The notes beneath the pieces are model-generated. The model was given only the letters and a program-made list of their open reading frames with translations. It was not told the DNA's origin and ran no database searches. DNA of 64,000 nucleotides, taken from NCBI GenBank assembly GCA_034414575.1, contig DAOULZ010000004.1, positions 6,417 to 70,416 on the forward strand, given 5' to 3'. Below are positions 1-48,312 of the stretch, one piece after another. The number at the start of each line of letters is the position of its first letter. Positions within the stretch are counted from its first letter, which is position 1. Source of the stretch: Dehalococcoidales bacterium (lineage in GTDB: Bacteria > Chloroflexota > Dehalococcoidia > Dehalococcoidales > UBA5760). Position numbers and translations under genes: made by a program.

Positions 1-486
1 GATAGCCTCACGAGATAAGTTTCTGGCTTCCTCAGCCGCCTCCTTAGCCGCGGTACCAGTTTTCTCCACCCGATTTATTCTCTCCGTTGACTCTTTCAGT
101 GACGATTCCGCAGTCTCCTTAACATCTTTGACCGAAACTTCAGCTTTAAATACCGCCTCTTCAAGCGTCCTGGTTAAAACCTTGGTAGCTTCTTTAGTCG
201 ACTCAATTACTTCCTCAGCCTTGGCTATGGCTTCCTTAAATGCCTTGTCAACTGCTTCCGCATTCTCCTCAGCCTCCCTGCTTACCTTCTCAGCCTTGGC
301 TATGGCTTTCCGAGAAGCCTTAGCTGCTTCATCAGCGGTTTTCTTAACCGATTTGCCTATTTCCTCAGCTTTGGCTATCGCTTCCTGGGCTGCTCTTATG
401 GTTGCCTCAGCCGCCTCGATAGCCGATTTACTCAGCGTCTCAGCCCTAGCTACTGCCTTTTCAATTGGCCCAAGTTCTTCTTCCAT
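1..486 (-). CDS. Coiled-coil repeat protein, N-terminal part (gene runs off the window start)
   Basis: Absent from the ORF track because the window edge truncates it. My minus-strand translation from ATG 486..484 reads MEEEELGPIEKAVARAETLSKSAIEAAEATIRAAQEAIAKAEEIGKSVKK...KEAIAKAEEVIESTKEA... and stays open to position 1. TTAGGGGGTAATAAGGGCC precedes the ATG. The DNA repeats at about 72 nt (gccttggctatggc at ~222, ~294, ~367). The listed + ORF 128..505 is its Ala/Ser-rich antisense shadow. Confidence 0.6.
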   Translation of the reverse strand, partial: MEEELGPIEKAVARAETLSKSAIEAAEATIRAAQEAIAKAEEIGKSVKKTADEAAKASRKAIAKAEKVSREAEENAEAVDKAFKEAIAKAEEVIESTKEATKVLTRTLEEAVFKAEVSVKDVKETAESSLKESTERINRVEKTGTAAKEAAEEARNLSREAI

Positions 487-571
487 GGCCCTTATTACCC
501 CCTAAAGACACTAGAAAACACGTCTCCCCTAGCATTCAAGCCAAAGAATTAACACTACTATAGCAAACTAT

Positions 572-600
572 ATTTTATGACAGGCTACTCATTTTTGCAA
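572..600 (-). promoter_or_regulatory. Sigma70-type promoter candidate for the coiled-coil gene
   Basis: On the minus strand: TTGCAA (600..595), 17 nt, TAAAAT (577..572), about 80 nt upstream of ATG 486. Confidence 0.4.
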
Positions 601-790
601 TATGAACTTAGTTAAAAGCCGCTATCCAGCCAAAATCCATTCAGATTAACCCTACTAATGGACTCCTCCCACGCCATTGAGGCAGAAGAGGAGATACCCC
701 CTGAAATTCCTGTTTTATTTTTTATTAATAGAGTTTATATTAGTTAGAGTATCAAACCTTAAAATGCTCTATAGTAAGGAGGAACTTAAA

Positions 791-1270
791 ATGACCGGCT
801 ATGAAATCGTCCAGTTCTGCGTTCTTGGAGTTCTTGTCTATTCGCTGTATTTGACCAGACGCGAATTTATGATTAGAACTAGACCATTCATTGGATTTGC
901 TAACATAGTGAGGAGGGATAGTGATAAGACAAACGAACTTGAATTTGATGTTCTCGTAAATAATGTGGGTAACTTGCCCGCAAAAAATGCTAAACTATAC
1001 GGGAAATTCTTCGTCACTGGCGAGGGCGAGACAGATTTTGAATGTGAAACTAGAGGCTCAGTCTTTCCAGCTTCCACAGCATTGCCAACATGGATAATAG
1101 GCGTTAAAGATGTTGATAAAGATGCGATTTTAAGCGGTTCGAAAGAGTTAAAGTTGAGTATGACCGTTGACTATTATGGGGTTTCTAAAGACGTGTATTA
1201 TACGAGTACTAGTAGAACTTATGATTCTCAAAGAGAGAAGTGGGTAAAAGAAGAAGGCGACTGGGTATAG
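791..1270 (+). CDS. Hypothetical membrane-anchored protein (one N-terminal TM helix plus a ~130 aa domain)
   Basis: The ORF track gives 677..1270. I prefer ATG 791 because AAGGAGG (776-782) lies 8 nt upstream. The N-terminus MTGYEIVQFCVLGVLVYSLYL is a TM helix. The local sequence is AT-rich. I recognise no family. Confidence 0.55.
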   Translation: MTGYEIVQFCVLGVLVYSLYLTRREFMIRTRPFIGFANIVRRDSDKTNELEFDVLVNNVGNLPAKNAKLYGKFFVTGEGETDFECETRGSVFPASTALPTWIIGVKDVDKDAILSGSKELKLSMTVDYYGVSKDVYYTSTSRTYDSQREKWVKEEGDWV

Positions 1271-1558: not shown

Positions 1559-1588
1559 TTGACATTGTCAGTTAAATGTGCCTAAAAT
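1559..1588 (+). promoter_or_regulatory. Sigma70-type promoter of the tubulin-like gene
   Basis: TTGACA (1559-1564), 18 nt, TAAAAT (1583-1588). GGAG (1607-1610) lies 6 nt before ATG 1617. Confidence 0.55.
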
Positions 1589-1616
1589 GGGGCAATTACT
1601 GCTACTGGAGTGAAAA

Positions 1617-2792
1617 ATGAAATTAGTAGTCATAGGTTTTGGTCAATGCGGCGGCCGTATGGCCGACGAGTTTGCCCGACTAAACGGACGGGCACGCAGC
1701 TATCGAGGGATCGAGATAATCACCGGCGCCTATGCGGTAAACACAGACGCTGCCGACCTGAGCGGCTTATCCACCATACGATCCGACTACAAACACAGGA
1801 TCCTCATCGGCGGGCGCAAGACCGGAGGGCATGGGGTCGGCAAGATTAATGAGCTGGGGGCGGAGGTAGCTCGAGAAGACAGTGATAAGGTTATCGATGC
1901 TATCAGAACCACCCGACACTTTGCCGAATCAGACGCCTTCATGCTGGTGGCCGGGGCAGCCGGCGGCACTGGCTCGGGCTCACTACCAATCATGACCCAG
2001 CTCATAAAAGAACGCCATGCGGATAAACCGGTATATAATCTCATCATTCTCCCCTTCGAGCATGAGGAGCAAACCGAGGAAAGAACCATCTATAACTCAG
2101 CCACCTGCCTCAAGTCAGCCGGCGCCGTAGCCGATGCCGTATTTCTCATCGATAACCAACGGTATATTAAAAAGGATGCCTCGCTGAGAAACAATATGGC
2201 CAAGATTAATGCCCTAATCGCTGAGCCATTCTATAACCTGCTCTGTGCCGGCGAGGAGAAAAAACGAAAGCATATCGGAGCCAGGACGCTTGATGCCGGG
2301 GACATCATGCAAACCCTAGTTGGCTGGACAGTGATTGGCTACGGTAAATCAGAGCTGCCCCTAATCAGGCTTCCTTTTGAACAAAAGCGCCACTTCAGGA
2401 AGAAAAGCACCGAAACCTCTCAGGGCATTCACGCCATGGATGAGGCTATAAGCGAGCTATCGTTAACCTGTAACCCCCAGGATGCTAACCGCGCCCTCTA
2501 CCTGCTGGGAGCGCCAGCCGGTGAGATGAACATGGAACTGGTTAAGGAACTCGGCGATTATCTGAGAGATATATGCCCCAAGGCGATCATAAGAAACGGT
2601 GACTACCCCAGGGAGAGGGGAGTGGTGGCTGTCACCGTAATACTATCGGAGCTGGACACCATAAAGAAGGTCACCGCCCTTTACAGTGAATCAACCACAG
2701 TTATCGGAGAGATTCAGAAAAAGCAGGAAGAAATAGCCTGTAAAGTAAAAGCGATCGAAGACGCCGCTAAAGACATACCCTCGCTACTATAA
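1617..2792 (+). CDS. Tubulin/FtsZ-superfamily GTPase, CetZ/tubulin-like rather than canonical FtsZ
   Basis: 391 aa. T1 loop is GFGQCGG (compare tubulin GQCGN and CetZ GQAGG). AGGTGSG fits the tubulin signature [SAG]GGTG[SA]G. FLIDNQRY aligns with tubulin (V/L)DNEA.Y and CetZ FDNDA. RTLDAGDIMQTL is a T7-like N/L.D..D motif. The gene has its own promoter and terminator. Confidence 0.8.
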   Translation: MKLVVIGFGQCGGRMADEFARLNGRARSYRGIEIITGAYAVNTDAADLSGLSTIRSDYKHRILIGGRKTGGHGVGKINELGAEVAREDSDKVIDAIRTTRHFAESDAFMLVAGAAGGTGSGSLPIMTQLIKERHADKPVYNLIILPFEHEEQTEERTIYNSATCLKSAGAVADAVFLIDNQRYIKKDASLRNNMAKINALIAEPFYNLLCAGEEKKRKHIGARTLDAGDIMQTLVGWTVIGYGKSELPLIRLPFEQKRHFRKKSTETSQGIHAMDEAISELSLTCNPQDANRALYLLGAPAGEMNMELVKELGDYLRDICPKAIIRNGDYPRERGVVAVTVILSELDTIKKVTALYSESTTVIGEIQKKQEEIACKVKAIEDAAKDIPSLL

Positions 2793-2836: not shown

Positions 2837-2875
2837 GGTACCCCCTCCCCTGGTGAGGAGAGGGGGTACCTTTTT
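2837..2875 (+). terminator. Intrinsic terminator after the tubulin-like gene
   Basis: GGTACCCCCTC ... GAGGGGGTACC forms a perfect 11-bp stem, followed by TTTTT (2871-2875). Confidence 0.8.
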
Positions 2876-2964: not shown

Positions 2965-4599
2965 ATGACTTCTCAGGTTTTCTATCGTAAGTGGCGCCCG
3001 CAAACCTTGGCCGAAGTCGTGGGGCAGGAACACGTCACCCAGACCCTACTTAACGCCCTGAGCAACGGTCGTGTCGCTCATGCTTATCTCTTCTGTGGCC
3101 CACGCGGCACCGGTAAGACCAGCACCGGTCGCATTCTGGCCAAAGCCGTAAATTGTCTTACCACCGGGGGTAACCAGGAACCGTGCAATACCTGCCCCAT
3201 CTGTCAGGCAGTAACCGCGGGCAGATCTCTGGATGTCATAGAAATTGATGCCGCCAGCAATCGGGGGATTGATGAAATAAGAGACCTCCGTGAGAAAGCC
3301 AACTATGCTCCCAGCCAGTCCCGTTACAAGGTCTACATCGTAGACGAAGTCCACATGCTGACTAAAGAGGCCTCCAATGCACTCTTAAAGACGCTGGAGG
3401 AGCCACCACCACACGTCATTTTTGTCTTGGCGACCACCGAAGCCCACAAAGTCCTGCCTACCATTATGTCACGATGCCAGCACTTTGATTTCCGGCGCAT
3501 CGCCCAAAAAGATATGGTCTCCAGATTAACTCACATTTGCAGTTTGGAGAGCATCAAGATTGAGCCAGAGGCACTGCGGCTCATCGCCAGGAGCGCTACC
3601 GGTAGCCTGCGGGACGCGGAAAATATTCTGGAACAGCTCATCACCTATTACGGCTCCGAACTCGAGCTAAAACAGGTTCAGGCCACCCTGGGGATTACCG
3701 GAGATAAACGAGCCAAAAAGTTAATAAAGTACATCGTGGATAGTGACATTGCCAGCGGGATAACCACCATCAACATTGTCCAAAGCGATGGGCTGGACCT
3801 ACGCCAATTCAACCGAGAACTGGTGGAGTATTTCCGCAGCCTGCTACTGGTAAAGACCGGCTCCGACGAAGCCGTAGACCTTACTGCTGAGGACATCGCC
3901 GAGCTAAAGGCTCTGGCCGCTAGAGCCTCCCTCAACCAGATATTAACCGCGGTCAAGCTATTCGGACAGCTCGATTTCGGTCTTGACAGCTATTCCACCC
4001 TGCCCCTGGAGCTAGCCCTAGTTGACTGCGCCCTGAGCTCAGAAGAAGAGGGGGAAGCCGAAACCAAGCGCCCTGAAGCTGACACTCACCGGAGGGCCAA
4101 AGCAACCCAAACCGAAACTACGAAACCCGCTGCGCCACCAGTACCTGATACGAGGGCGGCGGCACCACCACTAGAACCTGAAGACACCACCCCACCTCCA
4201 CCAGCGCCCGAGCTGGCTACTTCCCAAGTAACCTCAACAGAACCCACCGCTACCCCACCTCAGCCCGGCAGCGAGCTTGAATGCCTGAGACAAAACTGGA
4301 AACAGGTTATTGAGCAGGCTCCGGCGGACACCAAAAGAACCCCAGCCATGGCAATTCTGAGAAGTGCCGGCGTTACGCCAGTCGCCTTCGAGAACGACAA
4401 CCTGGTCCTAGCCTTTAGATACCCGCTGCACAAGGAGAATATGGAGAAGCCCCAAAACCAGGAGATTGCCGAAAAAATCATATCTAGCTTTTTAGGGCAC
4501 CCCTGCCATTTACGCTGCACTCACAAGCCGGAAGCCAATCATCTAGTGGAGGCAGCCCTGAAGATGGGGGCACAAATTACCAGCGTGGAGGAGAAATGA
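2965..4599 (+). CDS. dnaX: DNA polymerase III subunit gamma/tau
   Basis: Walker A is GPRGTGKTS and Walker B is DEVHML. A Zn module reads CNTCPICQ, and SRC is present. The linker is Pro/Thr-rich. Gene order dnaX-ybaB-recR is conserved. Confidence 0.95.
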   Translation: MTSQVFYRKWRPQTLAEVVGQEHVTQTLLNALSNGRVAHAYLFCGPRGTGKTSTGRILAKAVNCLTTGGNQEPCNTCPICQAVTAGRSLDVIEIDAASNRGIDEIRDLREKANYAPSQSRYKVYIVDEVHMLTKEASNALLKTLEEPPPHVIFVLATTEAHKVLPTIMSRCQHFDFRRIAQKDMVSRLTHICSLESIKIEPEALRLIARSATGSLRDAENILEQLITYYGSELELKQVQATLGITGDKRAKKLIKYIVDSDIASGITTINIVQSDGLDLRQFNRELVEYFRSLLLVKTGSDEAVDLTAEDIAELKALAARASLNQILTAVKLFGQLDFGLDSYSTLPLELALVDCALSSEEEGEAETKRPEADTHRRAKATQTETTKPAAPPVPDTRAAAPPLEPEDTTPPPPAPELATSQVTSTEPTATPPQPGSELECLRQNWKQVIEQAPADTKRTPAMAILRSAGVTPVAFENDNLVLAFRYPLHKENMEKPQNQEIAEKIISSFLGHPCHLRCTHKPEANHLVEAALKMGAQITSVEEK

Positions 4600-4901
4600 A
4601 TCTTGCCAACATGAAACAAGCCATGGAGCTTAAATCAAAGCTAGACAAGGCTCAGAAAGAGTTGAGCAACCTCACTATTGAAGCTGAGGCCGGTAAAGGT
4701 GCCGTTAGAGTCACCATGGACGGTCAGCAGAAAATAAAGTCCGTCAAGATTTCACCCGACATAATAAACCAGGGAAAGCCAGAGCTCCTAGAAGAACTGG
4801 TACTGAAAGCAGTGAATGAAGCCTCGGCAAAATCCCAAAAGGCTGCGGCCAAACAATTAAAGGGGCTAACCGGCGGCCTTAAGATTCCAGGGCTATTTTG
4901 A
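4596..4901 (+). CDS. ybaB: Nucleoid-associated protein YbaB/EbfC family
   Basis: 101 aa. Sequence MKQAMELKSKLDKAQKEL...GAVRVTMDGQQKIKSVKISPD. Overlaps the dnaX stop by 4 nt, in the classic position between dnaX and recR. Confidence 0.9.
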   Translation: MNLANMKQAMELKSKLDKAQKELSNLTIEAEAGKGAVRVTMDGQQKIKSVKISPDIINQGKPELLEELVLKAVNEASAKSQKAAAKQLKGLTGGLKIPGLF

Positions 4902-4953
4902 ACTAAACGGGAGGTACTGTCTCCTTCTTTAGTAAACCAATAAGGGGGCAAGC

Positions 4954-5565
4954 GTGAATCAAGAAGCTAAACCCACTGCTGATGCCGTATCTCGGCTCAT
5001 ACAGGAGCTTAATAAACTACCCGGAATTGGCCCCAAGAGTGCCCAGCGGCTTGCCTTCCACCTGCTTCGCGCCCCCGAAGAGGAGACAAGGCTGCTGGCT
5101 AGTGCTATCCTCTCGGTAAAGCAGGAGACCAAGCTATGCTCTGTCTGCCTTAATGTTACCAGTGCTGACCCCTGCCATATCTGTGCTAACGAGCAGCGCG
5201 ACCGCACCAAAATCTGCATCGTGGAACAGCCCCAGGACATCCTGGCCCTGGAGCATACCGGGGTCTATAGCGGACTCTATCACGTGCTCCACGGCGCCAT
5301 CTCGCCCACCGAGGGCATCGGTGCTGGTGACGTCAGGATTAAAGAGCTCATGGCCCGGCTTGGGGATGGCTCAGTAACCGAGGTCATTCTGGCCACCAAT
5401 ACCAACCTTGAGGGAGAGCAGACCGCCCTGTACCTAAACAAGCTCGTTACCCCCCTGGGCATCCGGGTTACCCGCCTGGCGAGGGGGCTCCCCTTCGGCA
5501 CCGAGCTGGAATACGCCGACGATGTTACCCTGACCAGAGCCCTGGAGGGCCGTCAGGAGCTATAA
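4954..5565 (+). CDS. recR: Recombination protein RecR
   Basis: HhH motif [14 protein letters not shown], Cys4 finger CSVC...CHIC, and a Toprim region. GTG start preceded by AAGGGGG. Confidence 0.95.
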
Positions 5566-5586: not shown

Positions 5587-6552
5587 ATGGCGAAAAGTAT
5601 GCCAATTGAAACAAAGCTCCTGCTTTCTAAATTTTTCCCGCCTGGTATTTCAGAGATTATTTTCAGTCGATATCGAATTCAGGCTGTTCCATCGGCATCA
5701 ACTGCCTCACAAGAGGTAATACTCCACTTCATAGATAGCTTCGAAGGCCAGGTGGGAGGCAGTAATCCAGAGGAAGAAGCCAATATCATATGCAACCTTA
5801 TCTCTGTATTGCTAAACACACGCGTAAGAAGAGAAGGCCTAAGAGTAAACAATGTGAATATTCCAGTCACAAAAGAGGGGGAACGAGTTCTGTACCCCCA
5901 GTTATTCGGAAACCTTGACCACGCTAGGCTAAACGAATATTTTAGGAAAATACTTTCCTTAGACATAGATTTGGCAAGACAGCTTGTTAGAGCCTGTCGC
6001 GCCTACTCCTTTGCATTGGGTTTTATCCCTTCAGACCCAACCTTCGCATTCTTTCTACTTGTGGTCGCCGGAGAGTGCCTATCAAGCCAAGATAAGGTCA
6101 TCCCGTCTTCAGAGCTAAAAATCGATTCCCAAAAATGCGATCGCTTCTGTCGCTTCATCGTCTCATTTCTTCCAGAAGAGTATAAGGGAGAAGATGAGCG
6201 AGATGAAGAACTCTTTGACGAGCTTCTTAGAACAGCATATTACTCGCACAGGTCGGGATTCGTCCATGGTGGGAAAGAGGTTTCATCGGCATCTCTAATG
6301 GCAGACAAAGCCCACTCCAGTTACTTCAAACACGCTACAGAAGGCAAAGAGGTAAAAACCCCCGGGTTGGGATGGTTTGCTAAAGTAATACGAGGTGCGA
6401 TTCTCGGTTACCTCGACTCTCTCCCTTCACATGATGCGGATGAGGAGCTTCTGCCTCGACTTGCCCTCGAAAAAGCCATGCTGAAAATCAAGGCAAGAAA
6501 AGATATCCAAAAAGGGCAAGTCGTAACTAAGGACGACATCGAGTACAGATAA
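5587..6552 (+). CDS. Hypothetical protein with a HEPN-like Rx4H motif (candidate RNase or abortive-infection-type effector)
   Basis: 321 aa, visibly lower GC than the flanking recR and recO. YYSHRSGFVHGG contains R222-x4-H227, in a helical C-terminal half typical of HEPN families with the Y..RS...HG pattern. I do not recognise the N-terminal ~120 aa. Confidence 0.5.
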   Translation: MAKSMPIETKLLLSKFFPPGISEIIFSRYRIQAVPSASTASQEVILHFIDSFEGQVGGSNPEEEANIICNLISVLLNTRVRREGLRVNNVNIPVTKEGERVLYPQLFGNLDHARLNEYFRKILSLDIDLARQLVRACRAYSFALGFIPSDPTFAFFLLVVAGECLSSQDKVIPSSELKIDSQKCDRFCRFIVSFLPEEYKGEDERDEELFDELLRTAYYSHRSGFVHGGKEVSSASLMADKAHSSYFKHATEGKEVKTPGLGWFAKVIRGAILGYLDSLPSHDADEELLPRLALEKAMLKIKARKDIQKGQVVTKDDIEYR

Positions 6553-7461: not shown

Positions 7462-8943
7462 ATGACATCCAGACTAGAACGCATCACACAGCAGAGATTA
7501 GAAAAACTGGAGCGGCTCCGAGCTCAAGGTATTAATCCCTACCCCCACCGCTACCACCGCAGCCACACTGCGGAAGAGGCCGTAGAGCTGCTTACCCAAA
7601 AAGAGAAGGGCCTAACTCAGGCTGAGGAAGTTAGCGTCGCCGGGCGAGTTACCGCCATAAGACGAATGGGCAAGAGCTCATTTGTGGACCTACGCGATGG
7701 CTCAGGAAAGATCCAGCTACTATTCCAAGATATTGACCGATTTGATAAGAAACTCCTCAACCTATTTAAGGAGCTAGACATCGGGGACATCATCGGAGTC
7801 AAAGGTAAGGTACTCCGGACAAAAAGGGGGGAGCCCACCGTCCAGGCAAGCGACTTCACCCTGCTGGCGAAGTCGCTTCAGCCCCTGCCGGAGAAGTGGC
7901 ATGGACTCAGTGATACCGACACCAGATACCGACAGCGCTACCTCGACCTCATCGCCAATGCCGAGACGAAGCACACCTTCAGGATACGGAGTCAGGTTAT
8001 CTCTGCCATACGGCAATTCTTGAACGGGCGCGGCTTTCTGGAAGTGGAAACCCCGGTACTCCAGCCCTCGGCCGGCGGGGCTCTGGCTCAGCCCTTTATC
8101 ACCCACCACCATGCCCTTGACCGCGACCTATACCTGCGCATTGCCCTTGAGCTACACCTCAAGAGACTGATCGTCGGTGGTTTTGACAAGGTCTACGAGC
8201 TGGGGCGCACCTTCCGTAACGAGGGCATCTCCACCAAACATAACCCCGAATTCACCATGCTGGAAAGCTACGAAACCTACGCCGACTACAACGATATCAT
8301 GAAAACACTGGAAGAAATGGTATGTCAGGTAGCTAAGCAGATTTTAGGCAAGGATGAGGCTAGCTTTGCCGGTAGCACCATTAGCTTTAAACTGCCGTGG
8401 CGGCGGTTGGAACTGCGCCAGGCAATTATAGAATACGCCGGCATCGACTTTGAGGAATACCCAGATGTCGAATCGCTGCGGGCTAAAATGGGGGAGTTTG
8501 ATATGGAGGCTGACCCGGAAAAAGACCGGGGCCGACTGATAGACGAGCTCCTAGCCACCTTCGTCGAACCAAACCTTACACAGCCCACCTTTCTCGTGGA
8601 CTACCCGATTGAGATGTCGCCCCTGGCAAAAACAAAACCAGATAACGAGCGGTTAGTGGAGCGCTTTGAGGCCTTTGCCGGCGGTATGGAGATTGCCAAC
8701 GCCTTCACCGAGCTTAACGACCCGATTGAGCAGAGAAAACGCTTCGTCAGGCAGCACAAAGCACGCCAAGCAGAAGACAGCGCAGCAGAGACTATTGATG
8801 AGGACTTTCTCACCGCCCTGGAGTATGGTATGCCCCCTACCGGTGGGTTGGGGGTGGGTATTGACCGCCTGGTAATGCTGCTCACCGGCCAGCAATCAAT
8901 CCGCGAGGTCATCCTCTTTCCCCAGCTAAAGGAGAAAGCTTAG
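7462..8943 (+). CDS. lysS: Lysine--tRNA ligase, class II
   Basis: 493 aa. Class II motifs FRNEGISTKHNPEFTMLE and GGLGVGIDRLVMLL. Confidence 0.95.
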   Translation: MTSRLERITQQRLEKLERLRAQGINPYPHRYHRSHTAEEAVELLTQKEKGLTQAEEVSVAGRVTAIRRMGKSSFVDLRDGSGKIQLLFQDIDRFDKKLLNLFKELDIGDIIGVKGKVLRTKRGEPTVQASDFTLLAKSLQPLPEKWHGLSDTDTRYRQRYLDLIANAETKHTFRIRSQVISAIRQFLNGRGFLEVETPVLQPSAGGALAQPFITHHHALDRDLYLRIALELHLKRLIVGGFDKVYELGRTFRNEGISTKHNPEFTMLESYETYADYNDIMKTLEEMVCQVAKQILGKDEASFAGSTISFKLPWRRLELRQAIIEYAGIDFEEYPDVESLRAKMGEFDMEADPEKDRGRLIDELLATFVEPNLTQPTFLVDYPIEMSPLAKTKPDNERLVERFEAFAGGMEIANAFTELNDPIEQRKRFVRQHKARQAEDSAAETIDEDFLTALEYGMPPTGGLGVGIDRLVMLLTGQQSIREVILFPQLKEKA

Positions 8944-8997
8944 GAGCTAAACAGGAGGACAGAAATCAAAAACAGCACAGAGAAGTTTCATAAAGAA

Positions 8998-9348
8998 ATG
9001 CTAGTTCTGTATGAGAAAGCCAAAAATGAATGTAACTACCATGCCGACCGCTTTCTCCAGGAGGTGAAAGAGATAGGTGGTCTAGCGGTAGCCAAGGAGC
9101 GGCTTTCCAGTGACACACCTAGAAACGCTCTATACCGGCTCCATAAACTCGGCAGGCTTGACATCTGCATAGAATGCCTGGTACTGCGCACCCAGTTTAA
9201 GGAGCTCTTCACGGAGGAGGAATTAGACAGAGCCAGAAAGCGCCTCCACAGTCTTGATTTCGAGATTCAAACAGAGGACAACTCCCACCTCAATCCTCTT
9301 CTCTGGCAAAATGAGAGTGAAGCGCAGGAGAGCACGAGGTATAAATAG
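8998..9348 (+). CDS. Hypothetical protein
   Basis: 116-aa ORF in the lysS-serS spacer, lower GC. No family assigned with confidence. Confidence 0.5.
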   Translation: MLVLYEKAKNECNYHADRFLQEVKEIGGLAVAKERLSSDTPRNALYRLHKLGRLDICIECLVLRTQFKELFTEEELDRARKRLHSLDFEIQTEDNSHLNPLLWQNESEAQESTRYK

Positions 9349-13951: not shown

Positions 13952-13965
13952 CGCCAGTGGAATTT

Positions 13966-14062
13966 AGTCTCCGAGCTACTTTGCCTAAAGGAAATCCCAG
14001 GGTAAGTAGCCGAGAGGGTATCACTGGAAACGGTGATGCCTCCCGTGTTTGGAAAGGAGAGT
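13966..14062 (+). promoter_or_regulatory. Moco (molybdenum cofactor) riboswitch-like element, copy 1
   Basis: P1 is UCUCC (13968-72) paired with GGAGA (14056-60). Also present: conserved CCGAG, a CCUAAAG receptor-like segment, the hairpin AUCACUG-GAAA-CGGUGAU with a GNRA loop, and GCCUCCC...GGAAAGGAG. P2 is GCUACUU/AAGUAGC. Confidence 0.75.
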
Positions 14063-14085
14063 AACTTGCTAAGGTGTTGTTTGTT

Positions 14086-14123: not shown

Positions 14124-14158
14124 GTATTGTTTAATTACACCAGGCTACAGAATTTAAA

Positions 14159-14255
14159 CTCTCCGAGCCAGTTTACCTAAAGGGCTCACCTATGGTAATT
14201 GGCCGGTAGGGTATCACTGGAAACGGTGACGCCTCCCGTATTTGGAAAGGAGAGG
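14159..14255 (+). promoter_or_regulatory. Moco riboswitch-like element, copy 2 (3' strand overlaps the SD of the permease gene)
   Basis: P1 is CUCUCC (14159-64) paired with GGAGAG (14249-54). The conserved core matches copy 1. P2 is GCCAGUU/AAUUGGC, which differs from copy 1 by compensatory changes (U-A to C-G, C-G to G-U). CCUAAAG and CUAUGG look like tetraloop-receptor elements. Confidence 0.8.
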
Positions 14256-14349
14256 TAGCATTGATCGCCACAGCCCCACCCTTTCTGATAATCATCTCAA
14301 GATCAGGGATGCTTTTTCATGCCGCGATTTTTATTCGCCGGGGGTTCAT

Positions 14350-15144
14350 TTGGTTAAAGAATGGCTGAGATCCAATAAACTGACACTGACTTTTGTGCTA
14401 CTTGGGGCCATCATTTTCCTGTTCATCATTGTGCCTCTATTCCGTATGATTTTTGCCTCCGACCCCGACATATTAAGGGAGACCCTGTTCGACCCTGAGG
14501 TAACGAAAGCTATACTACTTACCTTATGGGCAGCCCTTATCGCCACCGCAGTTGGTTTCGTACTTGGGGTACCTCTGGCTTACCTGCTGGCTCGTCATGA
14601 ATTCCGAGGCAAGAGAATAGTCGAGGGGTTAATTGATGTCCCGATAGTCGTACCCCACACTGCCGCTGGTATCGCTCTGCTCTTTGTGTTTGGTCGCAAC
14701 TTTCTCATGGGCAGGGCCTTCGACTCGGTAGGTGTCCAATTCGTTGATTCCACAGCCGGTATCGTGGTGGCTATGCTATTTGTCAGTGTTCCCTTCCTCA
14801 TAGATTCGGCTAAGGAGGGCTTTAAAAAGGTAGATGTAAGGCTAGAAAAAGTAGCTCGTACCCTAGGTGCTTCATCTTGGCAAACATTCTTCAAGGTTTC
14901 TTTTCCACTAGCCTGGAGAAGCATACTTTCGGGAAACATAATGATGTGGGCCCGTGGTATAAGCGAGTTTGGGGCAGTTATCATTCTTGCCTATCACCCC
15001 ATGATTGCCCCAACACTAATTTATGAGAGATTCGAAACCTATGGTCTCACCTACTCCCGGCCCGTGGCGGTATTACTCATTTTGATTAGCCTCATCATTT
15101 TTGTCGTCCTCAGAACCTTAGTGCAGAGGGGGGCGAAAAGATGA
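14350..15144 (+). CDS. wtpB: Molybdate/tungstate ABC transporter permease (WtpB/ModB-like)
   Basis: Multi-TM protein with the ABC permease EAA-type loop (DSAKEGFKKVDVRLEKVARTLGAS). The start is uncertain. The track start TTG 14242 lies inside the riboswitch and upstream of the SD. In-frame options are ATT 14260 (4 nt after GGAGAGG) or TTG 14350 (GGGGG 5 nt upstream). Confidence 0.8.
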   Translation: MVKEWLRSNKLTLTFVLLGAIIFLFIIVPLFRMIFASDPDILRETLFDPEVTKAILLTLWAALIATAVGFVLGVPLAYLLARHEFRGKRIVEGLIDVPIVVPHTAAGIALLFVFGRNFLMGRAFDSVGVQFVDSTAGIVVAMLFVSVPFLIDSAKEGFKKVDVRLEKVARTLGASSWQTFFKVSFPLAWRSILSGNIMMWARGISEFGAVIILAYHPMIAPTLIYERFETYGLTYSRPVAVLLILISLIIFVVLRTLVQRGAKR

Positions 15145-16261: not shown

Positions 16262-17233
16262 ATGAAGAGATTTTCAGTTATTGGGCTTTGCTTAACCGTG
16301 AGCCTAGTATCAAGCCTAGCGGTCGGGTGTGCCCGTCAGTCGGCTCCCGAGCCTGAACTATCAGGAACGCTACATATATTTCACGCAGGAAGCCTGACCA
16401 TACCGTTTGAAGAAATAACCGAGGGTTTTAATGAGCTATATCCCGATGTGGAAGTTCTGGCTGAGGGAGCCGGCAGCGCGACTACCATTCGTAAGGTAAC
16501 CGAATTACAGAGGGAGTGTGGCGTTATCGGTTCAGCCGATTACACACTTATTCCACAGCTCATGTTCCCAGATTATGCTGACTGGTATATCATCTTCGCT
16601 ACCAACCAGATGTGTATTGTATACACCGACAGCTCTCAATCTGCCAATGAGATAAATAGCGACAACTGGTATGAGATACTCCAGAGAGAAGGCGTTACCT
16701 ACGGGCGCAGTGATCCTGACCAGGACCCGTGCGGCTACCGGACGCTGATGGTCTGGCAGCTGGCCGAGGAGCACTACAGCGCGTCCGGGTTATATGATGC
16801 CCTTTATCAAGCCGAAGGAGACGTCATGCGGCCGAAGTCCGTTGACCTGATTGCTCTTCTGGAGTCAGGCGACCTGGACTATGCTTTTGAGTACACTTCA
16901 GTAGCCTCCCAGCACGGGCTGAACTACGTAACCTTACCGCCTCAGATAAACCTGGCTGACGAAACCTATAGTGATTTCTATGCTACTGCCGTAGTAGATA
17001 TTGCGGGTACGGAGCCAGGAACTACGATAGAGCAAAAGGGTAAGGCCATCGTCTATGGGGTTACCATGCCCACCAATTCTCCTGAGCATGACCTGGGCGT
17101 AGCCTGGATTGATTATCTGCTGAGTGAAGAAGGTAATGCCATTATGGAGGCAAGCGGTCAACCTCCGGTGGTACCAGCCCAGACCAATGACCAGAGCCTA
17201 GTACCTGAGTCGCTGCAGAAATATCTTGATTAG
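16262..17233 (+). CDS. wtpA: Tungstate/molybdate-binding periplasmic lipoprotein, WtpA type
   Basis: Lipobox LAVGC. IFHAGSLTIPFEE, AGSATTIRKVTEL, ADYTLIP, NWYEIL, DPCGYRT and GDLDYAFEYTSVA match my recollection of WtpA rather than ModA (which has FAAASL). Confidence 0.75.
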   Translation: MKRFSVIGLCLTVSLVSSLAVGCARQSAPEPELSGTLHIFHAGSLTIPFEEITEGFNELYPDVEVLAEGAGSATTIRKVTELQRECGVIGSADYTLIPQLMFPDYADWYIIFATNQMCIVYTDSSQSANEINSDNWYEILQREGVTYGRSDPDQDPCGYRTLMVWQLAEEHYSASGLYDALYQAEGDVMRPKSVDLIALLESGDLDYAFEYTSVASQHGLNYVTLPPQINLADETYSDFYATAVVDIAGTEPGTTIEQKGKAIVYGVTMPTNSPEHDLGVAWIDYLLSEEGNAIMEASGQPPVVPAQTNDQSLVPESLQKYLD

Positions 17234-17442: not shown

Positions 17443-17468
17443 CTAGTTCGCATATGAATTATGCGGAT

Positions 17469-17550
17469 GAGGGGGCGTTGAACCGCCCCCTTTAACTGGG
17501 CACTTGGATGACGGGGAGCCAATAGTGAAACCGACCTCAAGGGGTCGGTT
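17469..17550 (+). ncRNA. Unassigned structured 5' leader, copy L (candidate cis-regulatory RNA or riboswitch with terminator-like hairpin)
   Basis: 82 nt, 77/82 identical to the reverse complement of 22249-22330. Hairpins: GGGGGCG/CGCCCCC; CACUUGG[AUGACGGGGAG]CCAAUAGUG; AACCGACC-UCAA-GGGGUCGGUU followed by a U-rich tract. Then AAGGAGG and ATG 17577. Confidence 0.55.
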
Positions 17551-17576: not shown

Positions 17577-17963
17577 ATGCCTACATTTAGACGTCCAAAA
17601 CTACCTCCCAAAGGTAAGTTAGCATTAGGCTTAGCACTAGTAATATGGTGTAGTTTAGCGATTTATTTAACAAGGATTAAAATTGTCCCTTATTGGGGTG
17701 GTACGGGGGCACTTTCAGTCGTGGGTATTATTGTGGGGGTTTCTCAAATACTAGGATATAGGGATTCTAGACGTTCTATCAACAAATACGCAAAAAACTC
17801 ACAACGGGTTAGCAAAGAGCATAGAAAAAAAGACATGGGAGTAGAGTTAACAGATACAGGTATAAGAGCCAAGCGGCGATTCAGGGCACCATATGTTCCA
17901 GTAGTTCATAAGGGCGAAAAACAAAGCGAGATAAAAACCAATCGCAGCTATGGAGTGTGCTAA
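17577..17963 (+). CDS. Small 2-TM membrane protein (hypothetical)
   Basis: AAGGAGG lies 7 nt upstream of the ATG. Two hydrophobic helices (LALGLALVIWCSLAIYL and ALSVVGIIVGVSQIL). The basic C-terminal half overlaps the convergent ORF 17847..18161, so the true end is uncertain. Confidence 0.5.
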   Translation: MPTFRRPKLPPKGKLALGLALVIWCSLAIYLTRIKIVPYWGGTGALSVVGIIVGVSQILGYRDSRRSINKYAKNSQRVSKEHRKKDMGVELTDTGIRAKRRFRAPYVPVVHKGEKQSEIKTNRSYGVC

Positions 17964-20862: not shown

Positions 20863-21999
20863 CTAATACAATGGTCGCAATTCCTCCTCATCAGTTACCA
20901 GAGGAACCGTTATCTCACCAGTGTAAATAAGCTGTTTAACCTCTTCTACTTTCGCCTTGATTTCATCTGGTACGTTTGTTAGCGGGGCAATAGGTGGCCA
21001 ATCCTCTTGTTCCAACAGCGTGGTACCTAGCTTAATGCCAAATGAGTAATGTGCTCGATGAATAGTCCCATCTATTAGTGTCTCCACTGCGTGCTCAGCA
21101 AATCGTGGATGGTAATTGAGGAAACTGGTTAGTGTCCTATCTGGAGCTAACTCACGCTGGTCCAGGACCTCTCCTATGAAATACACGCCCGCAGACTCTT
21201 GAGCAGCCTTAGCCACACCAAACCCACCAGCATCAGCGTAATGTGCTATTACGTCGGCATCTAGATCGATCATGGCTTTAGTAGCCTCATAGGCCTTTTC
21301 TATATCGATAAAACTTCCTGTGTATAGGACCATCAGTTCTGCTTCTGGATTAATGTATTCCAGCCCCAGCTTGTAGCCATACCCGTATCTAATGATCTCA
21401 GGATAAGCCTGACCGGCGACGTAGCCCACTTTATTTGTCTTAGTAATCATACCTGCGACTATTCCCGCTAGAAATCCGCCGTCTTGGTCTCTCATTTCAT
21501 AACCAACAATGTTATCATACGGAAAATCGCGTTCAAAGTCCTCCTCAGTTGGGCACCACATTCCAAACCAGACCTCCGGACTTTCGGGTACAGCTGTCAT
21601 AGCTGCCTCGTAGAAACATGTATCCATAAGAACAAGATCGTTTGCATCCGCTGATGACCTTAGAGCATTAAGAGTCTCCGGATAGTCAACTGCGTCACCA
21701 AAGACGGTCTCAACTTCAGGAAATTTCTCCTCGATGTGGAGATAAGCCATGTAATTACTCTCCCCCCACGACTTGTCGGTCATTGAGCTACCCGTAAGTA
21801 TGGCTACCTTGTATTGCGTTGGTGTTGGTGTTGTCGGCTCCGTCGGCTGTGTTGGTGTTGTCGGCTCCGTCGGCTGTGTTGGTGTTGTCGGTGTCGTCGG
21901 CTCTGTTGGTGTTGTCGGCTCCACCGGTGCAGCACATCCGCCAAGAATCAAAGACGATACTACAGCGATCGTTAATATTGGTACAATGTATTTGTTCAT
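20863..21999 (-). CDS. BMP-family (PnrA/Med-like) ABC substrate-binding lipoprotein with Pro/Thr-rich linker
   Basis: Lipobox LGGC, then a (PTEPTTPTQ)n linker, then a BMP-like fold (KVAILTGSSMTDKSW...GYVAGQAYPEIIRYGYGY). No permease or ATPase genes are adjacent. Confidence 0.7.
   Translation of the reverse strand: MNKYIVPILTIAVVSSLILGGCAAPVEPTTPTEPTTPTTPTQPTEPTTPTQPTEPTTPTPTQYKVAILTGSSMTDKSWGESNYMAYLHIEEKFPEVETVFGDAVDYPETLNALRSSADANDLVLMDTCFYEAAMTAVPESPEVWFGMWCPTEEDFERDFPYDNIVGYEMRDQDGGFLAGIVAGMITKTNKVGYVAGQAYPEIIRYGYGYKLGLEYINPEAELMVLYTGSFIDIEKAYEATKAMIDLDADVIAHYADAGGFGVAKAAQESAGVYFIGEVLDQRELAPDRTLTSFLNYHPRFAEHAVETLIDGTIHRAHYSFGIKLGTTLLEQEDWPPIAPLTNVPDEIKAKVEEVKQLIYTGEITVPLVTDEEELRPLY
21815..21922. 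repeat. 27-bp tandem repeat (~4 units) encoding the Pro/Thr linker
   Basis: The unit gttggtgttgtcggctccgtcggctgt is identical at 21824-21850 and 21851-21877. A third unit (21878-21904) has 3 changes, and partial units flank the array. Confidence 0.9.
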
Positions 22000-22248: not shown

Positions 22249-22330
22249 AACCGACCCCTTGAGGTCGGTTTCACTATTGGCTCCCCGTCATCCAAGTGCC
22301 CAGTTAAGGGTGGCGGCTCAATACCCCCTC
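22249..22330 (-). ncRNA. Unassigned structured 5' leader, copy R (inverted copy of 17469-17550)
   Basis: The reverse complement matches copy L at 77/82 positions, with the 3' 59 nt identical. Lies 38 nt downstream of the minus-strand promoter and ~250 nt upstream of the BMP lipoprotein start (21999). Confidence 0.55.
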
Positions 22331-22374
22331 TTTACTTCAAGCACCGTATAATAACGTATGAAATTGCAGGTCAT

Positions 22375-23135: not shown

Positions 23136-23933
23136 ATGGGAAAAGGGCCCAATATAACCCCCGAGATTAGAAGCTCGATAGCGGCGATATATCTTAAGAA
23201 CAGAGCTGTAGGGCCAACCGAAGCCCGCAAAGAGTTGCTTAAGGAAATGAAGCAAAGGGGCCTTGACAGAAACTTTGGCCCTAACTACCCCAATGTCAGT
23301 ACAGTGTCAGTCTATCTAAAGAAATTCAAGGGAAATGATGAAGAGCGCTCGGTTGAATCAAGAAGGCTTGATGAACCCTGGTCTCTCGGATCTCTAATAG
23401 AGCACCCTATACCGTATGAGGCGTTACCAACAGTAATGTCAATTCGTAGAAAGTGTGCAATCCAAGGAGGTGACTACGACCTCACCATTCGAGAGGCGCT
23501 GTGGATTGGACGGTTGCACAAAATAATCGAGTTATATCAACCGGGTCACATTCCCCCGGACGTACGACATATACTAATGTCTGGAAAATGGAAAGATCCA
23601 GAAGGTGCTTGGCCTATCTCGAAAATACAGCCCAGCCTACTGACGGAAGACTTAATATTGGACTGTGCGTACTACTACTCAAAAATGGAATTGCTTTCTG
23701 AAATTGAGGGAGAATCGTTCGACAGCGGAGAGCTTGATACAGCCGTGATGGACGATGTCTACGAATTCTATGGCGAACGGAGACGAGATGCGATCTCACT
23801 GATTGCAGAGCGGTATGGCGCTGATGAGAATAAGCTCATGAAACTCAATCTATCAATACAGGAGACCGAGTACGCCGCTATGCGATTAACTGGATACCAT
23901 AAGGAGGCAGATAATGAGAGGCCACATACGTAA
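23136..23933 (+). CDS. Hypothetical protein translationally coupled to the integrase
   Basis: 265-aa ORF whose 3' end overlaps the integrase start by 20 nt. The N-terminus is HTH-like (ITPEIRSSIAAIYLKN...). No family recognised. Confidence 0.55.
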   Translation: MGKGPNITPEIRSSIAAIYLKNRAVGPTEARKELLKEMKQRGLDRNFGPNYPNVSTVSVYLKKFKGNDEERSVESRRLDEPWSLGSLIEHPIPYEALPTVMSIRRKCAIQGGDYDLTIREALWIGRLHKIIELYQPGHIPPDVRHILMSGKWKDPEGAWPISKIQPSLLTEDLILDCAYYYSKMELLSEIEGESFDSGELDTAVMDDVYEFYGERRRDAISLIAERYGADENKLMKLNLSIQETEYAAMRLTGYHKEADNERPHT

Positions 23934-25089
23934 ACGGGGTAAGAATAGCTATTCAATCAAAGTCAGTTTAGGGAAGGATGCTACCACAGGTAAGTATAAG
24001 TCCCAGTGGGTATCCGTCAAAGGCACCAAAAAGGATGCTGAAAAGCACCTGGCCGAATTATTACACCAGCTTGATAACGGCACTTTCATGAAGCCGGGTA
24101 AAACGACACTTGGGGAATACCTGGAGAAGTGGTTGAGAGACTACGCTTGGCCTAGTCTAGCCCCCAGGACGGTTGAGGGTTATGAGTCTATCATTCGCTG
24201 CCATCTCATCCCGGCCCTGGGGAGTATTCCCCTAACTCAATTAAGGCCAGAGCATTTGCAGCGTTACTACTCAGAGAAGTTGTCAGGAGGACGCTATGAC
24301 GGAAAGGGGTCACTCGGCCAGACATCGGTATTACACCATCATACCTGTTTGCATCGTGCTCTCAAGATGGCGCTCAGGTGGGGACTGATGAACCGTAACC
24401 CTGCCGATGCGGTTACTCCCCCACATCCCCAGCGTTCTGAAATGCACACCATGACTGAAGATGATCTGACTAGGTTTCTTGAGGCTGCCAAAGCTACGCC
24501 CTATTACGTGCTATTCTATCAGGCACTATTCACGGGAATGAGGAGAAGTGAACTATTAGCCCTACGATGGTGTGACGTTGATTTACTCCTATGCCAGGTT
24601 CACGTCACCCGCACTATTCACCAACTAAGGACTGGTGAGTTGGTTATTAGAGCACCAAAGTCAGTCAAAGGACGCCGCTTGGTTTCCCTGTCTCCCTCCG
24701 CCGCTCTGTTACTTCAAGAGCATCGAGACAAGCAAGCAGCACATCGGGTTATATTGGGCATACCACTAGAAGAAGATGACCTGATATTCAGCACACTGGA
24801 CGGCAGGCCACTACGACCCAATACGGTTACACGGGCATGGTCTATGTTGGCCGCCCGTTGTGGACTTAAGGGCATACGTCTTCATGATGCTCGCCATACC
24901 CATGCCAGTTTAATGCTCAAGCAGGGTGTGCACCCCAAGATAGTGCAGGAACGACTAGGCCATGCTACAATAGCAGTAACGCTTGATACCTATAGCCACA
25001 TTTCTCCCGGACTTCAGCAAGCGGCAGCGGAAGGCTTTGACAGAATGGTGCTTCCTAGGCGTGAAAAAGAAGCTGTTGAAAACCTTTAG
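23914..25089 (+). CDS. int: Tyrosine recombinase / phage-type integrase
   Basis: AAGGAGG precedes the ATG. N-terminus MRGHIRKRGKNSYSIKV. Catalytic region GMRRSELLAL...HDARHTHASLML...LGHATIAVTLDTYSH (R...HxxR...H...Y). Confidence 0.92.
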   Translation: MRGHIRKRGKNSYSIKVSLGKDATTGKYKSQWVSVKGTKKDAEKHLAELLHQLDNGTFMKPGKTTLGEYLEKWLRDYAWPSLAPRTVEGYESIIRCHLIPALGSIPLTQLRPEHLQRYYSEKLSGGRYDGKGSLGQTSVLHHHTCLHRALKMALRWGLMNRNPADAVTPPHPQRSEMHTMTEDDLTRFLEAAKATPYYVLFYQALFTGMRRSELLALRWCDVDLLLCQVHVTRTIHQLRTGELVIRAPKSVKGRRLVSLSPSAALLLQEHRDKQAAHRVILGIPLEEDDLIFSTLDGRPLRPNTVTRAWSMLAARCGLKGIRLHDARHTHASLMLKQGVHPKIVQERLGHATIAVTLDTYSHISPGLQQAAAEGFDRMVLPRREKEAVENL

Positions 25090-25147: not shown

Positions 25148-25237
25148 GGAGGGGTGTCCGAGTGGTCTATGGTGACGGTCTTGAAAACCGTTGTCCCCGC
25201 AAGGGGACCGTGGGTTCGAATCCCACCCCCTCCGCCA
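25148..25237 (+). tRNA. tRNA-Ser (anticodon UGA)
   Basis: Acceptor GGAGGGG/CCCCTCC. Anticodon arm ACGGT-CTTGAAA-ACCGT. Long variable arm GTCCCCGCAAGGGGAC. T-arm GTGGG-TTCGAAT-CCCAC. CCA is encoded. Confidence 0.95.
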
Positions 25238-47256: not shown

Positions 47257-48312
47257 TTAAGGTCTCTCTACCTTAACCCCTTTGAGCAAGACATAATCGT
47301 ACATGGTGCCGCTGGCGCCCTTAATCTCCAGAGAGTCAACAATGCCCTGATACTTGCCGCCCATTAACCCCTCCCCGATAATATAGGCCCCTTCCGCTGC
47401 CTCCTTGGCGGTTTTAGCCCGCCTCCCCAGCCGACGCACCTTGCCGAAGTGAGCCAGCCTGGTCTCCAGCGCCCGAGCAATCTCGGGAACTCGGGAGAGC
47501 CGACCGGAAAGGAGAATCTCCCTCGGCTTTTCCACGCTAACCATCATCGCCGCCACCCCCTTAGCCACACTCTCCAGAAGCATATTCCAGGCACCAACGT
47601 ATCTATCGGGATGGTGCGCCAGCTCCTCGGGGGTTAAATCCTCCTGGCCACTCATATCCTTGGCCCCACCACTATAGAGCACCACTCCGGGAAACTTCCC
47701 CAACCTCACCGCCAGCTCGGAGTCCATATTACCTACGGTGATAAACCCGGGACCACCGGCGGTTCCCCCCAGCCCATCGACTATCTTACCCCCGCTAACA
47801 CCGATGACGGCGTTAAAGGCATAGCCGACCTCAGCCAAGATAAAGGAGGTCTCAGTGTAGTCAATGCCATAACGCTCTGCCTGGTCTCTCACCGCCAGGA
47901 CGGTGCAACAAACCTTATCGGCGGTGCCCATGTCAAGCTTGTTCGCCTTCCGGTAGAGAGGGACGGTGGGGAGATGAATCACCCCGGGGGTGAAATAGAG
48001 CGGGAAGCCTTCTTTCCGCATCAGCCGAACCACCATCCGGATACCATCATATAGCGGGATGCTCTTGTCATCGGGCACCATCATCGTCAGTTCCCGCTCG
48101 GTGATATCCTTAATCGGGGTTACCGGCATGCCGTAACCAGAAGGGCCAACGATCATATCCAGTGGGAAAACACTTCTTACGGTATCGAGGAGCACCTTGG
48201 GGTTCTGGGCAACCTCAGGCACCGGCACGGTAGTATCTATGATAACCTCTTCCCCCTCCATACCGAAGAAATCAAAGCTGCCTGTTCCAGGGTCAATCCC
48301 GATAACTCTCAC
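47257..48312 (-). CDS. ASKHA (actin-like ATPase) fold protein, DUF1464-like (family name from memory, unverified)
   Basis: 351 aa. The N-terminus MRVIGIDPGTGSFDF is a phosphate-1 motif. Gly-rich segments occur later (GVSGGKIVDGLGGTAGGPGF). The start overlaps the stop of the radical SAM gene by 4 nt. Confidence 0.55.
   Translation of the reverse strand: MRVIGIDPGTGSFDFFGMEGEEVIIDTTVPVPEVAQNPKVLLDTVRSVFPLDMIVGPSGYGMPVTPIKDITERELTMMVPDDKSIPLYDGIRMVVRLMRKEGFPLYFTPGVIHLPTVPLYRKANKLDMGTADKVCCTVLAVRDQAERYGIDYTETSFILAEVGYAFNAVIGVSGGKIVDGLGGTAGGPGFITVGNMDSELAVRLGKFPGVVLYSGGAKDMSGQEDLTPEELAHHPDRYVGAWNMLLESVAKGVAAMMVSVEKPREILLSGRLSRVPEIARALETRLAHFGKVRRLGRRAKTAKEAAEGAYIIGEGLMGGKYQGIVDSLEIKGASGTMYDYVLLKGVKVERP

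Follow-up and report, generated by a model that had tools for sequence, protein, structure and literature searches.

A bacterial relative of CetZ in a Dehalococcoidales genome and its recurrent neighbours encoding helical-repeat proteins

Papers on CetZ still present the family as specific to archaea. In Haloferax, CetZ1 drives the change from disc to rod; the E218A substitution blocks its function, and the C-terminal tail LESLF is required for rod formation. Brown and Duggin (2023) set the boundary of the family at the Thermococcales CetZs, and Santana-Molina et al. (2023; Front Microbiol 13:1100249) listed Dehalococcoidia, including Dehalococcoides mccartyi, among “CetZ-like” groups. In the maximum-likelihood tree of the latter work the Dehalococcoidia clade (ultrafast bootstrap 100; D. 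mccartyi, Dehalogenimonas, GIF9 and a few Patescibacteria) lies among CetZ-like lineages, adjoining Altiarchaeota, Hydrothermarchaeota and a group of Methanosarcinia, and stands apart from canonical CetZ, and the CetZ_C profile matches Dehalococcoidia proteins at about 1e-19 to 1e-21. Here we compare with these systems the product of a gene at positions 1617 to 2792 (forward strand) of a 64,000-nucleotide stretch, hereafter the window, from contig DAOULZ010000004.1 of a Dehalococcoidales bacterium. A first-pass annotation made from the letters alone had read this product as CetZ-like and not FtsZ.

The gene extends from an ATG at 1617 to a TAA at 2792, encodes 391 residues and falls in “B”, the dnaX-linked orthologue group in a Dehalococcoidales family described below. 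The four motifs reported earlier for the product were all located in the translation: the T1 loop GFGQCGG (residues 7-13), the T4 loop AGGTGSG (115-121), which matches the signature [SAG]GGTG[SA]G, the segment FLIDNQRY (176-183) and the T7 loop RTLDAGD (223-229). Against Pfam, the protein scored 110 bits with Tubulin (PF00091; cut-off 33 bits) and 61.5 bits with CetZ_C (PF21011; cut-off 21.6 bits), the latter over 174 of 180 profile positions, and no match to FtsZ_C (PF12327) or Tubulin_C was obtained; the other CetZ-like paralogues also match CetZ_C. The NCBIfam FtsZ equivalog TIGR00065 failed, with 66.3 bits against a cut-off of 295.2 bits and only the N-terminal domain aligned, and Tubulin_2 (PF13809) stayed below threshold (20.5 bits; cut-off 27 bits), so that the protein does not qualify as a TubZ. 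The best sequence match in the PDB was Haloferax volcanii CetZ1 (4B46, E = 4e-41, residues 1-371), followed by CetZ2 (4B45, E = 7e-29), with FtsZ entries at E about 1e-8 to 1e-11. Using an alignment of 61 relatives as input, AlphaFold (AF2) gave a model with a predicted local distance difference test (pLDDT) score of 91 and a predicted template-modelling (TM) score of 0.89; the single-sequence model reached a pLDDT of only 39 and was unusable. Foldseek ranks 1 to 4 for the AF2 model went to 4b46, 4b45 and 3zid, with TM scores of 0.91, 0.91 and 0.78-0.81, and the superposition on CetZ1 and CetZ2 showed a root-mean-square deviation (rmsd) of 2.4-2.6 Å with about 30% identity over the structural alignment. 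FtsZ entries ranked below CetZ (TM 0.73-0.85). Because TIGR00065 failed and CetZ1 and CetZ2 were the best matches in sequence and in structure, we classify the window protein, from its sequence and predicted fold, as a CetZ-like member of the tubulin/FtsZ superfamily, distinct from FtsZ, in a genuinely bacterial genome. The profile searches and the structural comparison, both of which the first-pass annotation had put forward as checks, thus agree with its reading.

The 61-sequence alignment reaches down to 24% identity, and across it G7, G9, G12, G116, G119, N160 and N198 never vary and D179/N180 hardly do, showing that the loop glycines and asparagines of the nucleotide-binding site survive proper alignment. 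These loops and the T7 acid are intact, and the translation contains the features by which the superfamily is recognised, namely the T1-T6 loops, the GGTG[SA]G signature and an acidic T7 residue. In the HMMER alignment, D226 and D229 of the window protein lie opposite D215 and E218 of CetZ1, FLIDNQRY opposite LVFDNDAW, and the hydrophobic LIRLPF opposite the M-loop LLSRL. The pocket positions that we checked, Gln10 of T1 and GGTGSG of T4, resemble CetZ and tubulin, unlike FtsZ. No other open reading frame (ORF) of the tubulin/FtsZ family was found in the 64-kb window.

To place the protein we built a neighbour-joining (NJ) tree of 127 sequences, comprising HvCetZ1 and HvCetZ2, the paralogues from the loci studied, and 50%-identity cluster representatives drawn from 1.8 billion proteins; its root was set on Dehalococcoidales FtsZ, and the Thermococcales CetZs were left out. 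The window protein falls in a clade of 76 sequences (84% bootstrap; poor resolution within), with HvCetZ1 and HvCetZ2 outside. Two of the cluster representatives, P0121 and P0132, carry the name Dehalococcoidia. Neither this tree nor the published maximum-likelihood tree puts the protein in the canonical archaeal CetZ clade, and its contig and synteny are bacterial; it is therefore best described as a CetZ homologue that falls outside the strict definition by both clade and archaeal host. Judged by its sequence, it belongs to the Dehalococcoidia CetZ-like clade of Santana-Molina et al. (2023) and differs from it in nothing essential. The earlier proposal of a bacterial CetZ member accordingly stands in so far as a CetZ-like GTPase of the tubulin superfamily is present in a bacterium; its novelty does not, the clade having been reported in 2023. 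The lineage most likely goes back to an ancient acquisition from archaea, with later duplication inside Dehalococcoidia. Its extension to D. mccartyi rests on the supplement of Santana-Molina et al. and on locus tags in two papers; a search seeded with a Dehalococcoidaceae paralogue returned only environmental relatives above 80% identity and no named D. mccartyi proteins. In the literature searched, we found no account of the paralogue structure of the clade, of its function or of the module formed with two neighbouring genes, c5 and c7, and it is this conserved partner module that constitutes the main new lead.

The nearest relatives outside named Dehalococcoidia form the P0146/P0297 cluster (38% identity; Tubulin and CetZ_C), encoded at 8001-9257 in each of three loci (L129-L131). 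Their surroundings are cassettes rich in resolvase, IS605, IS66 and group-II-intron genes. The same protein is encoded twice in one sample, on separate contigs (L130, L131), and again on a contig from a second sample (L129), and the gene is always followed by an ORF of 324-327 residues with no Pfam match. It may represent a mobile CetZ-like cassette.

The genomic setting was described in the first-pass annotation as unambiguously bacterial, and this is borne out. Homologues number in the thousands, every organism-named top match comes from a Dehalococcoidia, Dehalococcoidales or Chloroflexota assembly, and the usual database label is “cell division protein FtsZ”, with “tubulin/FtsZ family protein” and “Tubulin-like protein CetZ” used in some cases. 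When each species was represented by a single genome, scanning yielded 48 Dehalococcoidales/Chloroflexota loci at 61-93% identity, among them two complete chromosomes, CP070729.1 and CP070645.1, the latter with three or more copies. Downstream of the CetZ-like gene, the window carries a housekeeping block on the forward strand (2965-5565) made up of dnaX (2965-4599), ybaB (4596-4901) and recR (4954-5565). The order CetZ-like, dnaX, ybaB, recR recurs in half of the genome loci (24/48) and, with Pfam labels, in four further loci (L132-L135) that include the contigs of P0003 and P0001; these two proteins, 96-97% identical to the window protein, supplied the contig context, as no contig is recorded for the window protein itself or for its 377-residue twin P0007. 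The window also contains recO, lysS, serS, dnaG, rpoD, fusA, prfA, prfB and gyrA, as well as molybdenum-cofactor (Moco) and c-di-GMP-II riboswitches, and the G+C content of the CetZ-like gene (about 0.50-0.58 in 300-nt windows) is close to the window mean of 0.51. With this synteny shared by dozens of genomes, two of them complete chromosomes, the contig belongs to a bacterium and is no chimera; the bacterial genes that it carries and its stable gene order effectively rule out archaeal chimerism or contamination. The sole match outside Chloroflexota, JAIWFK010000099.1 (L040; labelled Calditrichales), has the gene order CetZ-dnaX-ybaB-recR that is typical of Dehalococcoidales; its contig is 4.6 kb long, at 0.7x coverage, and the match probably reflects a binning error rather than a second phylum.

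The gene had been thought to stand alone, a description that does not hold for a family with several paralogues. Related genomes contain two, three or more such paralogues, and clustering of all ORFs from the loci revealed up to three CetZ-like genes per locus, with the window gene in the dnaX-linked B group (98% NJ bootstrap). On contig L132, which carries a 96%-identical orthologue, the genes run LOG-like, enolase, GAPDH, CetZ-like A (387 residues), c7 and c5 on the opposite strand, CetZ-like B (391 residues), dnaX, ybaB, recR and recO, and the A paralogue lies about 2.6 kb upstream of the B gene. Since the window starts inside c5, this synteny leads us to expect a second paralogue about 2.6 kb to the left of the window. 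The T7 motif DAGD is kept in A as well as B paralogues; a tubulin-like asymmetric A-B heterodimer is unsupported, both retaining it. In L013 and L018, from the same metagenome-assembled genomes as L011 and L014, a third CetZ-like paralogue comes directly after ftsA-ftsZ. There, ftsA (TIGR01174, 391 bits) and ftsZ are canonical, the latter scoring 414 bits with TIGR00065, matching FtsZ_C, and having the T1 loop GGGGCN and the tail DVPSFLRK. This third paralogue is followed in turn by nrdR and the gene for a ribonucleotide reductase of class II (L013 5408-9173; same layout in L018). We also observed a divergent CetZ-like type with the T1 loop GQCGCS and the tail NLPTLG (L009 1988-3160, L007 4389-4691; representatives P0137/P0141), which in some genomes stands in tandem 5' of the A paralogue and whose L007 copy appears truncated at 101 residues.

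Canonical division genes are retained in the lineage according to published work: mraZ-mraW-ftsA-ftsZ are kept by D. mccartyi as well as by every high-quality Dehalococcoidales genome investigated (two per order). The Dehalococcoidales have lost the peptidoglycan genes and possess an S-layer-like wall. D. mccartyi strain 195 has three genes annotated as “FtsZ”, of which DET0343 lies beside ftsA; the other two, DET0589 and DET0636, are probably CetZ-like and not FtsZ.

The neighbour upstream of the window gene is c5, of which the 5' part (162 codons; 1-486, reverse strand) is present, cut by the window edge and divergent from the CetZ-like gene. Its family consists of alpha-helical proteins of 490-700 residues in which the number of 25-residue repeats varies; the N-terminal AVARAE.L and the C-terminal motif RL[DE]FLA[RK]MY are conserved. 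Autocorrelation of the c5 translation gave a period of 25 residues, with [RKQ]AE at residues 14, 39, 64, 89 and 114 and an 11-residue sub-period; the period had earlier been put at 24. The gene c7 encodes a protein of about 175 residues with 11-residue periodicity, and Pfam searches of c5, c7 and the transmembrane (TM-segment) ORF discussed below returned no matches. To avoid retrieval bias, 80 metagenome loci were fetched by a pattern scan with the c5 C-terminal motif alone. A convergent CetZ-like gene lies 3' of c5 in every locus with at least 1.2 kb downstream (52/52), and c7 sits between the two in 48 of these 52; a divergent CetZ-like gene 5' of c5, as in the window, occurs in 18 of the 41 loci that extend 1.5 kb or more in that direction. 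This synteny strongly supports the coiled-coil protein c5 as a candidate partner of CetZ-like genes, as the first-pass annotation had tentatively proposed.

The same annotation had named the protein of the transmembrane ORF as another possible partner. This ORF (791-1270, forward strand, 159 residues, N-terminal hydrophobic segment) is carried on an AT-rich insertion of about 690 bp (672-1357). In three loci (L001, L049, L050) the blastn matches to window 1-671 and 1358-1796 are separated by only 90 bp, the insertion is absent from L132, and no DNA or protein homologue of the 791-1270 region was found in 128 loci; we therefore reject it as a partner and regard it as part of a strain-specific insertion. 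The surrounding AT-rich patch has about 38% G+C over roughly 450-1650, against 51% for the window. Further downstream, a 321-residue ORF without a Pfam match and with a lower G+C content (5587-6552, forward strand; about 0.43-0.47) separates recR from recO, which are direct neighbours in the closest relatives (L132-L134); it is a second strain-specific insertion beside the CetZ-like locus.

The promoter and terminator previously assigned to the gene are both real and recur in orthologues. A sigma-70-type promoter (1559-1588, forward strand) combines TTGACA (1559-1564) and TAAAAT (1583-1588) across an 18-nt spacer, with 11 of 12 positions matching, and a Shine-Dalgarno GGAG (1607-1610, forward strand) precedes the ATG by 6 nt, with GGAG or GGGG in orthologues. 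Both hexamers and the GGAG are retained in nine of ten orthologous upstream regions despite diverged flanks. On the 3' side, an intrinsic terminator (2837-2875, forward strand) consists of a G+C-rich hairpin (2837-2870) followed by TTTTT (2871-2875); a simple scan overlooked it because its stem is interrupted. The 98-nt stretch that includes it (2793-2890) has a folding energy of -42 kcal/mol (z = -3.2). Among the six orthologues with enough downstream sequence for comparison, an equivalent hairpin with a G+C-rich core and a T-run was present in five (L002, L003, L004, L009, L043). With its own promoter and terminator, the window gene looks like its own transcription unit.

The last sense codons (2769-2789, forward strand) encode KDIPSLL, a conserved short hydrophobic peptide. 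The motif [KR][DN][IV]P[ST]L[LI] closes nearly all full-length paralogues from Dehalococcoidia; the stretch of terminal helix in front of it, some 30 residues long, is variable. More distant CetZ-family representatives have similar tails, such as ..DIEPLF and ..DLPSL. The peptide also resembles that of FtsZ, the co-resident FtsZ of L013 having DVPSFL. We infer from this pattern a putative docking role for the tail, with c5, c7, FtsA, SepF or an adjacent subunit as candidate targets.

Taking these observations together, we favour, with a probability of about 0.7, a GTP-driven, membrane-proximal cytoskeletal polymer that takes part in shape or envelope organisation alongside FtsZ. The window protein would bind GTP through its T1-T6 loops, its subunits would polymerise head-to-tail into protofilaments, and Asp229 of T7 would complete the GTPase site of the neighbouring subunit, so that the polymers turn over. 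The filaments would probably act at the inner face of the membrane, with KDIPSLL docking to an adaptor, and probably work with the helical-repeat proteins c5 (25-residue) and c7 (11-residue). Their role would probably be the organisation of cell shape or envelope in a lineage that has no peptidoglycan and an S-layer-like wall, adding to the canonical FtsA-FtsZ divisome and not replacing it. Published proteomics of D. mccartyi BTF08 offers a correlative link to shape: the “tubulin/GTPase” btf_0551, the “FtsZ” btf_0595 and the nearby hypothetical btf_0548 reached higher levels in pure cultures or were quantified there only, and cells in co-culture had an unusual barrel-like form versus the typical disc.

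Several points weigh against this reading. For the bacterial members, polymerisation, GTP hydrolysis, cellular location and a part in shape are all inferred, and btf_0551, DET0589 and DET0636 are only putative orthologues of the window gene. The tightest synteny with c5 and c7 belongs to the A paralogue outside the window and not to the B gene within it. Among the published CetZ_C matches listed, Dehalococcoidales, UBA3495 and GIF9 are represented and the peptidoglycan-less SAR202 is not, and the correlation with wall loss is therefore imperfect. Finally, the FtsZ-like tail and the paralogue directly after ftsA-ftsZ make a division-related role possible.

This last consideration leads to the view that the protein serves division, as an accessory to FtsZ or an alternative to it, entering the Z-ring as a second “FtsZ” by way of the same membrane anchor. 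Public annotation does read FtsZ, one paralogue is immediately 3' of ftsA-ftsZ in L013 and L018, DIPSLL is akin to the DVPSFL peptide of FtsZ from the same lineage, and the abundances of “FtsZ” and “tubulin” in D. mccartyi shift together. We nevertheless consider it unlikely, since the FtsZ equivalog model failed by a wide margin with FtsZ_C absent, CetZ is nearer in both sequence and structure, a canonical FtsZ is retained, and the window gene itself is linked to dnaX and not to ftsA-ftsZ. The tail does not decide for division either, as archaeal CetZ has a similar hydrophobic tail that is tied to shape and motility, not division, in the papers cited. A scaffold that organises respiratory or metabolic complexes at the membrane, instead of cell shape, would account for the constant position of the A paralogue beside the enolase and GAPDH genes and for the D. 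mccartyi expression networks that connect DET0589 and DET0636 to hydrogenase and Fdh-like transcripts; a review of CetZ has also raised metabolic scaffolding from archaeal gene neighbourhoods. These links are of neighbourhood and co-expression only, however; eno, gap and dnaX serve housekeeping functions and may be adjacent by chance, and other paralogues lie near unrelated genes (the trp operon, DUF72/DegV, response regulators), which makes this explanation quite improbable.

We give almost no credence to a TubZ/PhuZ-like tubulin that would segregate the DNA of a mobile element, or to an archaeal origin of the contig by chimerism or contamination. Although Tubulin_2 matches below threshold, the nearest placed relatives outside Dehalococcoidia (the P0146/P0297 cluster) reside in cassettes rich in resolvase and insertion sequences, and an AT-rich insertion lies just upstream of the gene, the position between gap and dnaX is stable over dozens of genomes and two complete chromosomes, by which this explanation is effectively refuted. 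Moreover, neither TubR-like nor centromere features adjoin the gene, the window holds no second tubulin-family gene, bacterial riboswitches, sigma-70, DnaG, GyrA, EF-G, RF1 and RF2 are encoded on the same contig, and the composition of the gene agrees with its surroundings.

The preferred reading, a cytoskeletal polymer acting in shape or envelope organisation, can be carried further, and in this extended form we hold it as tentative, with the odds against it. The CetZ-like paralogues together with c5 and c7 might form a dedicated membrane skeleton that sets the flat disc shape of the peptidoglycan-less, S-layer-walled Dehalococcoidales and assumes the role in shape played by the wall-building machinery of walled bacteria. 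It might be a counterpart of the haloarchaeal CetZ shape system, derived from archaea and expanded by duplication, and the D-[IV]-P-S-L-L tail might let CetZ-like polymers and FtsZ share, or compete for, one anchor.

An abundant bacterial clade with multiple paralogues thus exists in cultivable organohalide respirers (Dehalococcoides, Dehalogenimonas) and in subsurface Dehalococcoidales, where it would provide a second, independent setting for the function of CetZ-type polymers, in a cell bounded by membrane and S-layer only. Many “FtsZ” annotations in these genomes are wrong, and proteomic or transcriptomic statements about “FtsZ” may concern another cytoskeletal protein. The c5-c7-CetZ module offers concrete partner candidates, few partners being known even for archaeal CetZ.

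Other features of the window were recorded in passing. Two tandem Moco/tungsten-cofactor riboswitch aptamers (13957-14075 and 14149-14268, forward strand; 84 and 83 bits) lie directly 5' of an ABC transporter with permease (14242-15141) and solute-binding protein (16262-17230). One c-di-GMP-II riboswitch (17462-17545, forward strand) precedes a 128-residue ORF without a Pfam match (17577-17960), and another (22254-22337, reverse strand) precedes a PnrA/Bmp-like substrate-binding protein (20866-21999, reverse strand). A tyrosine (phage-type) integrase gene (23914-25086, forward strand) abuts tRNA-Ser (25148-25237), probably marking the edge of an integrated element over part of the 17-25 kb region. 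The gene for a DUF1464 protein (PF07318, 322 bits) adjoins one for a radical-SAM/SPASM enzyme (47260-48312 and 48312-49367, both reverse strand).

Comparison with the known members of the superfamily locates the window protein as follows. TubZ/PhuZ and BtubA/B are likewise polymerising tubulin-superfamily GTPases that occur in bacteria; they are, however, specific to plasmids, phages or Prosthecobacter and have their own C-terminal domains and partners (TubR; BtubC), whereas the window locus is chromosomal and set among housekeeping genes, and its product lacks a Tubulin_C match and reaches only a sub-threshold score with Tubulin_2. With bacterial FtsZ, for instance that of L013, it shares the GTPase domain of the superfamily, the D-x-x-D of T7 and a C-terminal peptide of the D-[IV]-P-x-[FL]-L type; it differs in its T1 loop (GQCGG vs GGGGCN), in being without FtsZ_C, in a TIGR00065 score of 66 bits vs 414 for the true FtsZ of the lineage, and in its neighbours, which are c5 and dnaX and not ftsA. 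The CetZ of Methanosaeta (Methanothrix) thermophila (3ZID) has in common with it the T1 GQCG, an LPF..EE after S5 and the DNQ of T6, and its related non-canonical Methanosarcinia group is close to the Dehalococcoidia clade in the published tree, but the match is weaker (E = 7e-13, N-terminal domain only; TM 0.78-0.81, rmsd about 5 Å). Within the Dehalococcoidia group of Santana-Molina et al. (2023), Dehalogenimonas AKG53714.1 is similar over its full length and has DNQRY, TLDAGDI and a terminal DIP; orthologue groups, dnaX linkage, promoter and terminator, the c5-c7 module and the shared C-terminal tail do not form part of that account. From the archaeal CetZ1 and CetZ2 of H. volcanii (4B46/4B45) the window protein differs in the Cys of its T1 loop (GQCGG, as in tubulin, where CetZ has Ala), in a T7 Asp for the Glu of CetZ1, in its tail (DIPSLL vs LESLF), in its bacterial host and in its gene neighbours. 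It shares with them the predicted two-domain tubulin fold with a C-terminal domain of the CetZ_C type and a long terminal helix, the T1 GQxGG and T4 GGTGSG motifs, an acidic T7 residue at the position of CetZ1 E218, a hydrophobic stretch at the position of the M-loop and a short hydrophobic C-terminal tail.

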